A DNA stretch of 64,000 nt from Actinomycetota bacterium (GCA_046732465.1 JBKPND010000029.1:17123-81122), one strand, 5' to 3'; counted from the stretch's first letter, positions 1,436-19,146 are shown. The notes: a model not told the origin generated them from the letters alone. Translations and numbers: made by a program.

Positions 1436-1509
1436 ACGCGGGGTGGAGCAGTCTGGTAGCTCGTCGGGCTCATAACCCGAAGGTCGCGGGTTCGAATCCC
1501 GCCCCCGCT
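1436..1509 (+). tRNA. tRNA-Met (anticodon CAT), initiator type
   Basis: CGCGGGGTGGAGCAG..TCGGGCTCATAACCCGAAGGTCGCGGGTTCGAATCCCGCCCCCGCTA is almost collinear with the E. coli tRNA-fMet recalled from memory. It has a C1 x U72 mismatch and three G-C pairs in the anticodon stem. CCA is not encoded. Confidence 0.9.
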
Positions 1510-1513
1510 ACTA

Positions 1514-1543
1514 GCCAAGGGCCCTCTGAAAAGAGGGCCCTTG
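1514..1543 (+). terminator. Stem-loop terminator of the tRNA (founder copy of the GGGCCC hairpin family)
   Basis: A 12-bp perfect stem, CCAAGGGCCCTC / GAGGGCCCTTGG, has loop TGAAAA and is followed by TGTTTCC. Confidence 0.7.
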
Positions 1544-1686
1544 GTGTTTCCGGGCAGGGTTTCTTGACGGGCCCGGCAGCAGGCTCGCGTGTCGCCGCGC
1601 AGTCGATTTCACATCCGGATCGCCGTTCGTATCCTCGCTCTGCTGCTGTATCAGCCGATTGGCGAGTCCACCTAAACGCATCGCAC

Positions 1687-2157
1687 TCAGGTGACTTCAT
1701 AGAGACGGGCGGTCTTCACGTCGTAGACGAAACCCCGCACCTCATCCGTCCTGGGGATGAAGGGACTGTCCTCGATCCGGTGGATGGAGTCGCGGACGTC
1801 ATCTTCTAGGTCCGGGAATGATCGTGGGCGCCACTCCGGGCGCCGGCCAGTTTCCTTCTCGAGCGTCTGCTCGAACTCCGTGTCGCTGAAGGTGAGCATT
1901 CCGCAGTCGGTGTGATGGAGGAGCATGATCTCCTCCGTTCCGAGGAGGTGCTGGGAGATCGCCAGGGAGCGGATCTCGTCATCAGTGATCACGCCCCCCG
2001 CGTTGCGGATTACGTGGGCATCCCCGATCGACAGCCCGAGGATCGGATACGGATTAAGCCGCGCGTCCATGCAGGCAACGATCGCGACCTTCTTGGCGGG
2101 CGGCAGCGGCAGGTCGCCCTTATCGAAGCCCTCGGCAAAGGTCTCGTTTTTCTTCAC
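1687..2157 (-). CDS. Beta-class carbonic anhydrase
   Basis: The ORF carries VACMDARL, HVIRNAGG and HHTDCGM, the Cys-Asp-Arg / His-x-x-Cys zinc-ligand pattern of beta-CAs. Confidence 0.85.
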   Translation of the reverse strand: MKKNETFAEGFDKGDLPLPPAKKVAIVACMDARLNPYPILGLSIGDAHVIRNAGGVITDDEIRSLAISQHLLGTEEIMLLHHTDCGMLTFSDTEFEQTLEKETGRRPEWRPRSFPDLEDDVRDSIHRIEDSPFIPRTDEVRGFVYDVKTARLYEVT

Positions 2158-2289
2158 GAATTCGTCGATGGGCGCTCATCTGGGTCCCCTTCGGATTGGT
2201 TCCTTCAAGGATGTGAAGGGGGATTAAGTTGGTAGCAAGGTCACGCATCGCAACGCAGAAGGTCCCCACGCGGGCGCTGGGCAGGAGGA

Positions 2290-16743: not shown

Positions 16744-16897
16744 GGGCTTCTCGCATCGGTATGTCCTGTCGCGGTCATCACCGGTAAGGACACCGGCTTG
16801 CCCAGGGATGGACCGGCCGTTCCGTTCTCGTCGTCGCCGGTGTCTCAACGGACATGGACCCGAAGACGCGTTTGCAACGCGACTACCTAGGAGGGTA

Positions 16898-18583
16898 ATG
16901 ATGGAATCGTCCGCACCGGTCGTGCACCCGGCCCCCTCGCCCGTTCTCGATCCCCGCCGGTGGTGGGCGCTGGCCCTCCTCTGCGGCGCCTTCTTCATGG
17001 TGCTCCTCGACGCCACGATTGTGCTCGTGGCGCTGCCCTCGATCCAGGCGGACCTCGGCTTCTCGGAGCGAGGCCTGCAGTGGGTGCTGAGCGCCTACGC
17101 GCTCACCTTCGGCGGCCTGCTCTTGCTCGGAGGACGCGCGGCCGACCTGCTCGGACGCCGTCGCGTGTTCATGGCCGGTGTCCTCTTCTTCACCGCCGCG
17201 TCGCTCATGTGCGGGCTCGCCTGGTCGCAGGCGGCGCTCCTTGCGGCCCGGGTCGTCCAGGGCATCGGCGCCGCGATCATGACCCCGACCGCGCTCTCGA
17301 TCATCTCGACCACCTTCCCCGAGGGCCCCGAGCGGAACAAGGCGCTTGGGATCTGGGGTGGGCTCGGCGGCGTCGGCGCCACCACGGCGTGGCTGATCGG
17401 CGGCCCGCTCGTCGACGGCCCCGGCTGGGGGTGGATCTTCTTCATCAACATCCCCCTCGGCCTGGCCGCGCTTGCGCTGTCGCCCGTGCTCCTGCGGGAG
17501 AGCCGGGGCGCGCTGACGCGACGGAGCTACGACCCCGCTGGGGCGCTCACCATCACCGGCGCGATCGTCCTGCTCGTCTATGCGCTGGTCGAGGCGCCCA
17601 ACGTCGGCTGGGGTGACGTCCAGACGATCCTCCTGTTCGCCGGCTCGGCCATCCTCCTCGCTGCCTTCGCGCTGATCGAGGCGCGCCACCCCGAGCCCCT
17701 TGTGCCGCTCCGCCTCCTCCGATCGCGAACACTCGTCGGGGCGAACGCGGTGATGCTCCTCGTCGGCACCCTCGCCGTCGGCATGCCGTTCGTCCTCACG
17801 CTCTATGCGCAGCAGGTGCTCGGCTACTCGGCCGTCAAGTTCGGAGTCGGTTCGGTCGTTCTCGCAATCACGGTCACGGTGGGGGCGATCGTCGCTCAGG
17901 CGGCGGTCCTCAAGGGCGGCTTCCGCTCGGTCGCCGCGACGGGCATGGCGTTGATGGGCGGGGGGTCACTACTGCTCACCCAGGTCTCCGTGGGCGGCAG
18001 CTACCTCGGCGACATCTTCTTCGGGCTGCTCGTCTTCGGGCCCGGGGTGGGTCTCGCCTTCGTGACCGCCACGGTCGCGGCCCTCGCGGGCGTCGCCGAG
18101 CGCGAGTCCGGGCTCGCCTCGGGCCTCAGCAACACCGCCTTGCAGATCGGCTCGGCACTGGGCGTCGCCATCGTCACGACCGTTGCTGTCTCCCGCTCAC
18201 AGGACTACCTCGCGGCGCACGCAGGCGCAAACCCGCTCGTCGTGCTGAACGAGGGCTACCAGTCGGCCTTCCTGGCCCTCGTCGTGCTGGCCGGGATCGG
18301 CATGGCGCTGGCGCTCGTCCTCCTCGGCCGCCCGCGGAAAGCGCCCGCACGAGCCGCTGGAGCCGGTCCCGGCGACCGGGGCCGCGGAGTGAGGAGAGCG
18401 GTACAGGTTCGACTACCAGCGAAAGGAACGGAGCAATGGGAAAGATCGTCATCAGCGAGAACGTCACGCTCGACGGAGTCATCGAGGATCCTTCCGGTGA
18501 CGAGGGCTTCAAGCACGGCGGCTGGGTCGGCAGGGTCACGGACCGCGAAGAGGCCGGCAAGGTACTGCTCGACGAGACGCTGA
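16898..18583 (+). CDS. MFS transporter, DHA2 (EmrB/QacA, 14-TM) family
   Basis: WWALALLCGAFFMVLLDATIVLVALPSI and LGGRAADLLGRRRVF are present. AGGAGG precedes ATG 16898/16901. The Arg-rich tail overlaps the next gene. Confidence 0.85.
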   Translation: MMESSAPVVHPAPSPVLDPRRWWALALLCGAFFMVLLDATIVLVALPSIQADLGFSERGLQWVLSAYALTFGGLLLLGGRAADLLGRRRVFMAGVLFFTAASLMCGLAWSQAALLAARVVQGIGAAIMTPTALSIISTTFPEGPERNKALGIWGGLGGVGATTAWLIGGPLVDGPGWGWIFFINIPLGLAALALSPVLLRESRGALTRRSYDPAGALTITGAIVLLVYALVEAPNVGWGDVQTILLFAGSAILLAAFALIEARHPEPLVPLRLLRSRTLVGANAVMLLVGTLAVGMPFVLTLYAQQVLGYSAVKFGVGSVVLAITVTVGAIVAQAAVLKGGFRSVAATGMALMGGGSLLLTQVSVGGSYLGDIFFGLLVFGPGVGLAFVTATVAALAGVAERESGLASGLSNTALQIGSALGVAIVTTVAVSRSQDYLAAHAGANPLVVLNEGYQSAFLALVVLAGIGMALALVLLGRPRKAPARAAGAGPGDRGRGVRRAVQVRLPAKGTEQWERSSSARTSRSTESSRILPVTRASSTAAGSAGSRTAKRPARYCSTRR

Positions 18584-19008
18584 GCGCCGAGGCAGAGCTC
18601 TACGGTCGGCGTACCTACGAGTTCCTCGCCTCGCGCTGGCCATCGCGAAGCGGCGAGTTGGCGGACAAGCTGAACGCCATGCCCAAGTACGTCATTTCCT
18701 CGTCCCTCGAGGATCCCGAGTGGAATAACACGACGGTGCTGAAGGGGGACGCCGTGGAGGAGGTCTCGAAGCTGAAGCAGGAGCTGGACGGAGAGATCGT
18801 GGTCCCCGCCAGCATCCAGCTCGTGCGCACGCTGCTGGAGCACGACCTCGTCGACGAGCTGCGGCTGATGGTCTACCCGGTCGTACTCGGTGCTGGCGAG
18901 CGCCTCTTCGGCGAGACCAACGACACGAAGCCAATGCGCCTCACGGGCAGCCGAACCCTCGACGACGGCCTCGCCCTCCTCACGTACGAGGCCGTCCGAG
19001 AGGCCTAG
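18436..19008 (+). CDS. Dihydrofolate-reductase-like (RibD C-terminal domain) family protein
   Basis: MGKIVISENVTLDGVIEDP and LRLMVYPVVLGAGERLF match the family. An SD (GAAAGGAACGGAG) lies upstream. Confidence 0.8.
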   Translation: MGKIVISENVTLDGVIEDPSGDEGFKHGGWVGRVTDREEAGKVLLDETLSAEAELYGRRTYEFLASRWPSRSGELADKLNAMPKYVISSSLEDPEWNNTTVLKGDAVEEVSKLKQELDGEIVVPASIQLVRTLLEHDLVDELRLMVYPVVLGAGERLFGETNDTKPMRLTGSRTLDDGLALLTYEAVREA

Positions 19009-19064
19009 CGCGCGGGGGACGGCAGCAGGGTTCCGAAAAGCCCACTTTCGGTCGGCCGACGGAC

Positions 19065-19146
19065 TCGCGGATCCGCGCCGGATCGTCGCGAGAGACGAAT
19101 CCCGCCCCCGCTACTTGCCAAGGGCCCTCTGAAAGGAGGGCCCTGG
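19065..19146 (+). repeat. att-like copy F: short arm plus tRNA-fMet T-loop-to-3'-end fragment plus hairpin
   Basis: The segment reads CGCGGATCCG..ACGAATCCCGCCCCCGCTA-CTTG-CCAAGGGCCCTCTGAAAGGAGGGCCC-TGG. The arm resembles the arm of copy E. Confidence 0.75.

Follow-up and report, generated by a model that had tools for sequence, protein, structure and literature searches.

The initiator tRNA-Met gene near the left end of a 64,000-nucleotide stretch of actinobacterial DNA (Actinomycetota bacterium, GCA_046732465.1, JBKPND010000029.1:17123-81122; hereafter "the window", meaning the whole stretch) is followed by a one-directional series of copies of its own 3′ half, each joined to a terminator-like hairpin. 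With a probability of about 0.8 we consider that this array, carried by an uncultured soil actinobacterium of the order Solirubrobacterales, would have arisen by repeated site-specific integration of tyrosine-integrase elements at the initiator tRNA gene, followed by decay. The assignment of the copies as putative attR scars of such elements is supported since relatives possess empty sites, the arms adjoining the copies have a defined architecture and complete integrase-bearing sister elements exist. These observations bear out a preliminary description, made from the window alone, in which attL/attR footprints and tandem accretion had been proposed.

The only tRNA of the window, tRNA-Met(CAT), is encoded at 1437-1511 on the plus strand (ARAGORN; Rfam tRNA, 65.7 bits) and bears the marks of an initiator, namely a C1xU72 mismatch and an anticodon stem closed by three G-C pairs; CCA is not encoded. 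It is preceded by a Ppx/GppA phosphatase gene (396-1385, minus strand; Pfam PF02541, E = 7e-55), the conserved chromosomal left flank, retained at 80-90% identity in 13 relatives with intact tRNA. The intact gene forms the attL side of the array, and we infer that its 5′ part is chromosomal while its 3′ part and terminator came from the last element integrated. The repeated unit of 84 nt begins with the anticodon loop CTCATAA, comprises the remaining 3′ part of the tRNA, a 3-nt spacer and a hairpin with a 12-bp stem (CCAAGGGCCCTC-loop-GAGGGCCCTTGG; folding at -30 kcal/mol, z = -4.5), and closes in TGTTTCCG; shuffled sequence gives 0 matches expected by chance. In the reference copy, c1 (1469-1552), the spacer is TAG, and the hairpin at 1515-1544 is followed by the same terminal segment. 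Five clear copies lie beyond the tRNA, each on its strand (plus). The copy c2 (4571-4654), attR of islet A, consists of the fMet 3′ half, a TCC spacer and a hairpin with a GAAA loop, thus departing from c1 at two spacer positions and in its loop, which is 2 nt shorter; c3 (6106-6189) combines a Pro(GGG)-like anticodon stem-loop with an fMet-identical T-arm, a divergent 3′ end, a TAG spacer and a hairpin with 1 mismatch; c4 (8194-8277), attR of islet C, is 100% identical to c1. The two outer copies begin their identity in the T-loop: c5 (12875-12958; family B) has a diverged B-type flank, identity from ACGAATC at 12899, GGG in place of the CCG of the tRNA, a TAG spacer and a perfect hairpin, and c6 (19072-19155; family B-like) has the flank, a T-loop start at 19096, a TTG spacer and a hairpin with 2 mismatches. 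The perfect 84-bp repeat at 8194-8277, the diverged copy at 4571, the T-loop copies at 12899 and 19096 and the single orientation had all been described beforehand and were found again; that layout was right, although its coordinates were off by 1 nt. Of the four blocks then listed, the second, of ~3.6 kb, has to be revised, the overlooked c3 dividing it into 1.5 kb (islet B) and 2.1 kb (islet C).

Upstream of the core, c2 and c4 share about 107 nt (4464-4570 and 8087-8193, 91% identical), so that 172 nt are alike at 91% overall. These plus-strand segments are the family-A P arms of islets A and C: the former contains GGTACCA/GGTACCG at 4467 and 4479 and CTGAG/CTCAG repeats and ends at the core, the latter contains GGTACC repeats at 8090 and 8102. 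The arm pattern of the family, GGTACCA-GCSG-TGGTACC-RAACTGAG followed by CTGAG/CTCAG repeats and GAGCCCACCGAACGGCTTCAAGGCTT, takes up ~105 nt and recurs at no fewer than 12 genome loci and on 51 metagenome contigs of Solirubrobacterales; the distance from its start to the core is constant at ~104 nt, and its outer edge is sharp against unrelated cargo. Variant families keep this architecture with the paired repeat altered to GCATCAAT, GGGTACCAA or GTCCCA. The paired repeats may be regarded as putative integrase arm-type sites. The islets of the window have no GGTACC repeats at their left (P′) ends, unlike autonomous relatives, which have repeats on both arms. A known structured RNA extending over arm and tRNA half was considered and rejected, Rfam at E <= 1 returning the tRNA alone. 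On one metagenome contig (L115, Ga0126308_10052301), the GGTACC arm stands at its normal distance from a tRNA-Arg(ACG)-like 3′ half, which is suggestive of a possible target switch within one arm family.

Empty sites, in which the tRNA abuts the flank, had been named in the preliminary description as a check, and they were found (L033, L004 and L016) by comparison between relatives rather than between alleles of the window strain. In L033, the intact tRNA with its hairpin is followed by an amine-oxidase gene, and this flank reappears in L063, L024 and L077, preceded there by foreign islets and an arm; identity with L033, amounting to 96-99.7% across as much as 2.9 kb, begins exactly at CTCATAA of the anticodon loop. 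Comparison of L004 and L016, both with intact tRNA, places the homology break at the anticodon loop relative to L061 (family A) and at the T-loop relative to L012 and L023 (family B). A recurrent open reading frame (ORF) of ~400 aa beside att copies, at first integrase-like, was rejected as an integrase, being an FAD amine oxidase of the ancestral chromosomal flank. Relatives with a left flank 85-90% identical share nothing with the window 3′ of the tRNA, and the same cargo—carbonic anhydrase, DUF2071 with the EEP nuclease, and a 111-aa protein—accompanies att copies at differing array positions across genomes; the window segment at 32.8-35.5 kb is 92% identical in L030. A gene order common to all relatives, which according to the preliminary description would speak against insertion, is not observed. 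The identical Ppx/GppA protein was encountered only on two JGI metagenome contigs (L001 and L002), where the arrangement recurs at 99.9% identity; a search of metagenome contigs for circular forms or alternative junctions of the window strain detected none, L001 and L002 showing one arrangement.

Scanning the hairpin against one genome per species (185,579 genomes) yielded 68 stretches, almost all from metagenome-assembled genomes (MAGs) of Solirubrobacterales, with at most ~5 copies per genome, grouped on one contig 3′ of tRNA-fMet with a shared orientation; no tRNA piece is joined to about 14 of these 68, some of which come from unrelated phyla. The oriented stretches fall into three classes, i.e., intact tRNA-fMet with hairpin, family A fragments starting at CTCATAA in the anticodon loop and family B fragments starting at ACGAATC in the T-loop. 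Since on several contigs three to four like-oriented copies are spread over 40-80 kb, the stacking of copies is, as far as the assembled sequences tell, a trait of the order Solirubrobacterales and not of one window. The distance between copies may be small: in L014, two family-B copies lie 763 nt apart around one SnoaL-like gene, and in L059, 1.1 kb separates the tRNA from the next copy. This 1.1-kb islet, which precedes a family-A2 copy, contains an ORF (5370-6014, minus strand, oriented coordinates) with a long coiled-coil C-terminus that seems similar to the tail of large serine recombinases. Most family-B copies (window 12899-12918; L003, L012, L022, L023 and others) depart from the tRNA at 2 nt in a conserved manner, reading ACGAATCGGGCCCCC in place of TCGAATCCCGCCCCC; the difference sits within the supposed identity block, is absent from c6 and from one L014 copy, and implies either a crossover 3′ of it or heteroduplex resolution in the overlap. 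The same hairpin with a 12-bp stem was also noticed in L048 (Pelomicrobium), directly 3′ of a tRNA, and in L044 (Holophagaceae), L053 (Mesoterricola) and L067 (Rhodobacterales); its occurrence in unrelated phyla may reflect chance convergence of a GGGCCC-based terminator, contamination or transfer. A phage origin was rejected, neither the tRNA-hairpin junction nor the family-B flank yielding a match in IMG/VR.

In the window itself, no recombinase was detected by Pfam among all plausible ORFs between 1 and 46 kb, chosen by frame-specific G+C. Six-frame ORFs of at least 100 aa gave no match to the integrases of lambda, L5, VWB and P4 (tyrosine) or Bxb1 (serine) by phmmer and hidden Markov model searches, and profiles of two integrase families from relatives and of excisionases, applied permissively, hit nothing in the window better than E = 0.1. 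Excisionase, conjugation (FtsK/TraG-like) and replication genes were likewise not found in the islets by Pfam. The initial observation that the blocks encode no recombinase thus withstood all three kinds of searches, Pfam, reference integrases and family profiles. A 17-aa match to integrase N-/C-terminal motifs at 2272-2343 (minus strand; E = 0.2-0.7) was discarded as noise, being unconfirmed by the family profiles.

Integrases are present in sister elements located at tRNA-fMet in relatives (L078, L077, L139, L131 and L137), and the tyrosine integrase encoded at genome locus L050 belongs to a family numbering over 4,000 proteins. The left part of L078 consists of Ppx, tRNA-fMet and P′ repeats GTCGTCCCAAT/CTCGTCCCATT (GTCCCA twice), after which comes a 7.7-kb element with an integrase, a PIN/DUF433 pair, P repeats CGTCGTCCCA/TCGTCCCAAT (GTCCCA twice) and attR; beyond it stand three islets of 1.9-3.0 kb without integrase, all of them closing in a GGTACC arm and core. 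Not all copies of L078 have the same hairpin, and the "canonical" one stands at the attR site of the integrase element; this is to be expected if a tRNA 3′ end and a terminator come in with every element and displace those already present. The second integrase family is characterized by an Arm-DNA-bind_4 domain and an HTH_17 excisionase gene before the integrase gene. In L139 (13 kb), the tRNA is followed by P′ repeats TGTCAAACGG (twice), the HTH_17 excisionase, an integrase with Arm-DNA-bind_4 and Phage_integrase domains, P repeats GTCAAAC (twice) and attR; paired GTCAAAC repeats of this type lie ~80 nt past the tRNA and ~150 nt before attR. Complete elements of the second family carry defence cargo (GmrSD, EcoRV-type restriction-modification, TIR, AAA_15/21), in contrast to the metabolic and regulatory genes of the integrase-less islets in the window. 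Defence genes in autonomous elements with adjacent excisionase and integrase genes (xis-int) were noticed in L139, L135/L136, L137/L138, L131 and L133 and further include McrBC restriction, an OLD/UvrD pair resembling Gabija, AbiEii and TIR-pentapeptide proteins. L079 has TraG/TrwB-like, SLT and SSB genes beside xis-int.

The copies of the window are progressively more damaged with distance from the tRNA, and their remnants continue beyond c6. A profile built from all copies detected with nhmmer a decayed B-like copy at 31826-31867 (plus strand; E = 2e-6), made up of a tRNA 3′-end remnant (GGCCCTAT), a TAG spacer and a hairpin CGAAGGGCCCTC-GAAA-GAGGGCCTTG, as well as an uncertain hairpin-only relic AAGGGCCCTC-GATC-GAGGGCCCT at 39024-39055 (plus strand; E = 2.4e-5). 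The profile also located a decayed copy without hairpin (TTCGCGGTCCGAATCCGGCGCCCGCTAT) at 35521-35551 (plus strand); L030, which is 91-93% identical to window 32758-35549, terminates there in an intact copy with hairpin. The G+C content is ~0.64-0.71 up to ~38 kb and 0.70-0.76 further out; its rise from ~0.67 to 0.70-0.76 near ~38000-39100 fits acquired DNA left of the relic, which coincides with this rise and is a possible outermost scar. Since decayed copies are traced to 39 kb and the G+C content shifts near ~38 kb, the array probably spans ~1.5-39 kb, double the region first reported. Past 39 kb no recognizable scar was seen, and further copies of the hairpin unit were not found elsewhere in the 64 kb. 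Because in L015 an att copy adjoins DNA 83% identical to window 46224-52297 and in L046 a family-B copy adjoins a homologue of window 41473-42878, the variable region in the lineage of the window may, on this comparison, reach 41-46 kb.

The following scheme would account for the array. The integrating elements would represent a diverse tyrosine-integrase family common in Solirubrobacterales. Their attP would combine a P arm bearing a pair of ~8-nt direct repeats, presumed to be integrase arm-type sites, with a core that reproduces the tRNA up to its 3′ end, beginning at the anticodon loop in family A and at the T-loop in family B, and with a terminator hairpin belonging to the element itself. 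Integration would restore the tRNA from the copy brought by the element and shift the old 3′ half and hairpin outward, where they would persist as attR behind the P arm of the newcomer. Repeated rounds stack the islets, the newest adjoining the tRNA, as comparison with relatives shows. The islets of the window appear to be non-autonomous, having kept P arm and core and lost integrase, excisionase and P′ repeats; most likely they are derivatives reduced to their cargo when the recombination module was lost, with older scars decaying further out. Units remaining intact could possibly be excised or moved by a cognate integrase acting in trans or by an element integrating alongside.

Several observations weigh against this scheme of accretion and decay. 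All sequences come from metagenome assemblies or MAGs, in which mis-joins at 84-nt repeats are conceivable. The complete identity of c1 and c4 over 84 nt, despite their separation by three islets, is not predicted by one-by-one accretion and requires elements of the same family or gene conversion. The tRNA halves of family A have hardly any mutations and most copies retain a complete arm, a conservation exceeding what a passive graveyard predicts, and the one-gene islets (0.76 kb in L014, 1.1 kb in L059, 1.5 kb for islet B) are small for remains of elements of 8-13 kb. The integrase matching the GGTACC arm is absent beside all 14 family-A copies at genome loci with 1.8-7.6 kb upstream, and only 1 of the 51 arm-bearing metagenome contigs has an integrase by the arm, a pseudogene: in L092, a frameshifted integrase ~76% identical to the P0121 family lies 0.6 kb from the arm. 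Finally, Pro-like halves on either side of islet B find no explanation in accretion at fMet. On the left, a tRNA-Pro(GGG)-like 3′ half (4672-4718, plus strand; anticodon loop CTGGGGG, T-arm GCTGG/CCAGT, 3′ end CGCCCCGAC; recognized by sequence, T-loop match and alignment) begins 27 nt past the c2 hairpin; on the right, the tRNA part of c3 (6106-6150) is Pro(GGG)-like, yet joined to the fMet spacer and hairpin. This hints at elements of other tRNA specificity, or at hybrid att sites, inside the fMet array. Gene conversion together with recent arrival can explain most of the features that misfit a passive graveyard. Two candidate partners of the GGTACC arm were set aside: the L050/P0001-type integrase, whose own elements use GTCCCA repeats, and the P0121-type integrase, whose complete elements use GTCAAAC. 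As for an integrase located beside another copy of the arm, proposed earlier as something to look for, integrase elements do occur at the same tRNA, but the GGTACC arm is accompanied only by the frameshifted L092 gene.

Some of the same features could be read in favour of an active, integron-like array, in which non-autonomous cassettes (cargo, P arm, tRNA 3′ half and terminator) would use the tRNA as primary site, and an integrase encoded elsewhere or brought by a visiting element would regularly excise, shuffle and re-insert GGTACC-arm and family-B islets. Arms that are complete, highly conserved and sharp-edged in ~65 instances while integrases are nearly absent, near-perfect tRNA halves in family-A copies, the existence of one-gene units, the same cargo beside att copies at varying array positions between genomes, fast turnover of content between relatives, and the integrase-bearing element adjoining integrase-less islets in L078 would all agree with such shuffling. 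We nevertheless consider it unlikely: the search for a cognate integrase was negative, the left ends of the islets have no arm repeats, contigs with circular or alternative junctions were not seen among those examined, and the genes lie on both strands with no common promoter logic. A quarter of the arm-bearing copies have broken cores (13 of the 51 metagenome copies have no intact fMet core: in 12, core or arm is deleted or truncated, and in L115 the tRNA-Arg-like half takes its place). Thus, between the two fates left side by side in the preliminary description, a graveyard of decayed islands and cassettes served in trans, the evidence leans to decay because att sites degrade outward, P′ repeats are missing, many metagenome copies are damaged and one metagenome integrase is frameshifted; the second fate keeps a minor share. 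The identity of c1 and c4 and the 172 nt shared by c2 and c4 might point to copying of the tRNA 3′ region by segmental duplication or replication slippage, the intervening DNA having diverged later, but this is very improbable given that the blocks between copies have no mutual similarity, that the 107-nt arm stands beside unrelated cargo in many other genomes and that empty-site alleles exist. Least credible of all is a generic intergenic terminator or repetitive extragenic palindromic (REP)-like repeat spread in some other way and merely resembling att. The hairpin is indeed a good terminator-like stem-loop, and the stretches devoid of a tRNA piece, some in unrelated phyla, would suit such a repeat, but many scattered copies per genome were not found in the 185,579 species genomes. 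There, the few copies of each genome keep to one contig and one orientation 3′ of tRNA-fMet, none occurs elsewhere in the window, homology breaks exactly at tRNA sublocations typical for integrases, and the flanking arms share their architecture with integrase-bearing elements. The preliminary description had allowed that a generic genome-wide repeat would overturn its view; with 68 stretches in the whole survey, nearly all of them joined to tRNA-fMet or to a piece of it, this is not what was found.

Turning to the contents of the accretion array, the blocks between copies encode cargo on both strands, and the genes listed previously were reproduced by Pfam. Islet A (1553-4463) contains genes for a beta-carbonic anhydrase (1687-2157, minus), an alpha/beta hydrolase (2632-3453, plus) and a GST-like protein (3498-4325, plus); islet B, an alpha/beta hydrolase fused to a class III nucleotide cyclase (4726-6078, plus); and islet C, an acetyl-CoA hydrolase/transferase-GNAT fusion (6191-7993, minus; 600 aa on contig L001). 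DUF2071 (9161-9943), an EEP nuclease/phosphatase (10203-11126), unknown ORFs and a 111-aa Cys-rich protein (12450-12785) belong to islet D (8278-12874), while islet E (12959-19071) has a LysR regulator, a histidine phosphatase, an ECF sigma-SnoaL fusion and an MFS transporter. Counterparts occur directly after att copies elsewhere: a carbonic anhydrase gene 90% identical to that of islet A follows a B-type copy in L039, and DUF2071 and EEP genes 86-90% identical to those of islet D follow a copy in L013. The 111-aa protein (plus strand) has a CECANPECGEH motif and no Pfam family; its gene is found at 90-92% nucleotide identity in L064 and L055 and as a more distant homologue in L032, lying directly beside a family-B copy in L055 and L032 and, in L064, within an element ending in one, so that the product may be an accessory factor of family B or merely frequent cargo. 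Three class III cyclase-domain genes are located in or next to the array (4726-6078, plus; 19148-20353, plus; 36823-38961, minus); in two of these the cyclase domain is accompanied by an alpha/beta hydrolase domain, two start right after an att copy, and those at 4726-6078 and 36823-38961 are paralogous at ~67% nucleotide identity. In relatives, the commonest cargo adjoining family-A and family-B arms is represented by small SnoaL_2/NTF2-like genes (L014 1521-2069, minus; L066; L077 5385-9382; L022; L068; L070) with a conserved terminal ...EAAGLSE and a conserved leader hairpin GCTGCTTTCCATGCAAAGCAGC; L077 has 11 of them in tandem and L014 one, as a 0.76-kb islet, and no homologue of these arm-adjacent genes was found in the window.

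In Solirubrobacterales, a soil lineage that is abundant yet has received very little study, the initiator tRNA gene emerges as a major hotspot of integration whose contents turn over fast. The att-arm sub-families GGTACC, GTCCCA, GTCAAAC and GCATCAAT, each presumably matched to an integrase subfamily, offer a usable grammar for annotating islands in MAGs. If intact arm-bearing islets were indeed mobilizable in trans, they would constitute a cassette system of new design, with lambda-type att sites and functionally parallel to integrons, and a widespread class in Solirubrobacterales including family-B units often limited to a single SnoaL-like gene; if they are not, the array is a clean textbook case of accretion and decay.

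Comparison with known systems helps to place the array. With integrons, of which the preliminary description was reminded, the window shares one-directional small gene units, each ending in a recombination site, and one primary anchor. However, no intI accompanies the anchor, whose left flank is Ppx/GppA, and no integrase is found within 64 kb; recombination sites are formed by 3′ halves of the tRNA and double-stranded arm repeats rather than by attC hairpins, imperfect palindromes that recombine as folded single strands; and genes occupy both strands without the logic of a Pc promoter, in contrast to promoterless cassettes of uniform orientation. The likeness is therefore functional only, and every defining integron feature fails. 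Closer in att organization are actinomycete integrative and conjugative elements (AICEs) of the pSAM2/SLP1 type and the attP sites of lambda and L5, where identity extends from the anticodon loop to the tRNA 3′ end, arm repeats flank the core and a xis-int module is present. The att organization of the window is of this lambda/L5/pSAM2 type, and in L079 the TraG/TrwB-like, SLT and SSB genes even stand by xis-int, whereas the islets of the window differ from AICEs in having no AICE replication, transfer or recombination genes.

Stacked islands have been described in other phyla as well. In Dehalococcoides, genomic islands are integrated site-specifically at the single-copy ssrA gene by a mechanism common in the genus (PMC3146451). 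Their target, tmRNA, distinguishes them from the window. They are reportedly also arranged in tandem, bounded by repeats of the gene 3′ end and loaded with adaptive cargo, and are said to rely on a recombinase of their own, of the serine type. Prochlorococcus tRNA-anchored islands consist of adjacent cargo elements divided by partial copies of the island tRNA, newcomers pushing older elements outward and leaving remnants, fragmented integrases and partial tRNAs (bioRxiv 10.1101/2020.12.28.424599). Tandem accretion and partial tRNAs between units are common to both systems, the Prochlorococcus cargo being metabolic or defensive. Tycheposons, by which the Prochlorococcus islands are remodelled, have a deep-branching recombinase and hallmark replication genes, while the integrases of relatives studied here are ordinary Phage_integrase proteins with Arm-DNA-bind_4/SAM-like N-termini and an HTH_17 excisionase; phylum and tRNA differ too, and the likeness is one of behaviour only.

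Among the closest counterparts are cis-mobilizable elements (CIMEs), i.e., att-flanked blocks without recombination and transfer modules that are excised or transferred once a related ICE/IME integrates beside them, exemplified by those next to ICESt1/ICESt3 of Streptococcus thermophilus (PMC5704250; a category in ICEberg 2.0, PMC6323972). The islets of the window are likewise att-flanked and contain no recombination or conjugation modules, and in both cases accretion-built blocks stand in tandem with, or are left over from, integrase elements at the same site. L078, where an integrase element is lined up with integrase-less islets, resembles CIME accretion arrays in its static arrangement alone. 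What sets the present array apart is the initiator tRNA as target, the Solirubrobacterales host, the very small islet size of 0.8-6 kb, in the extreme a single gene, and the restriction of arm-type repeats to one arm. Taken together, the array of the window is essentially a clear yet ordinary case of foreign DNA gathering at a tRNA gene.

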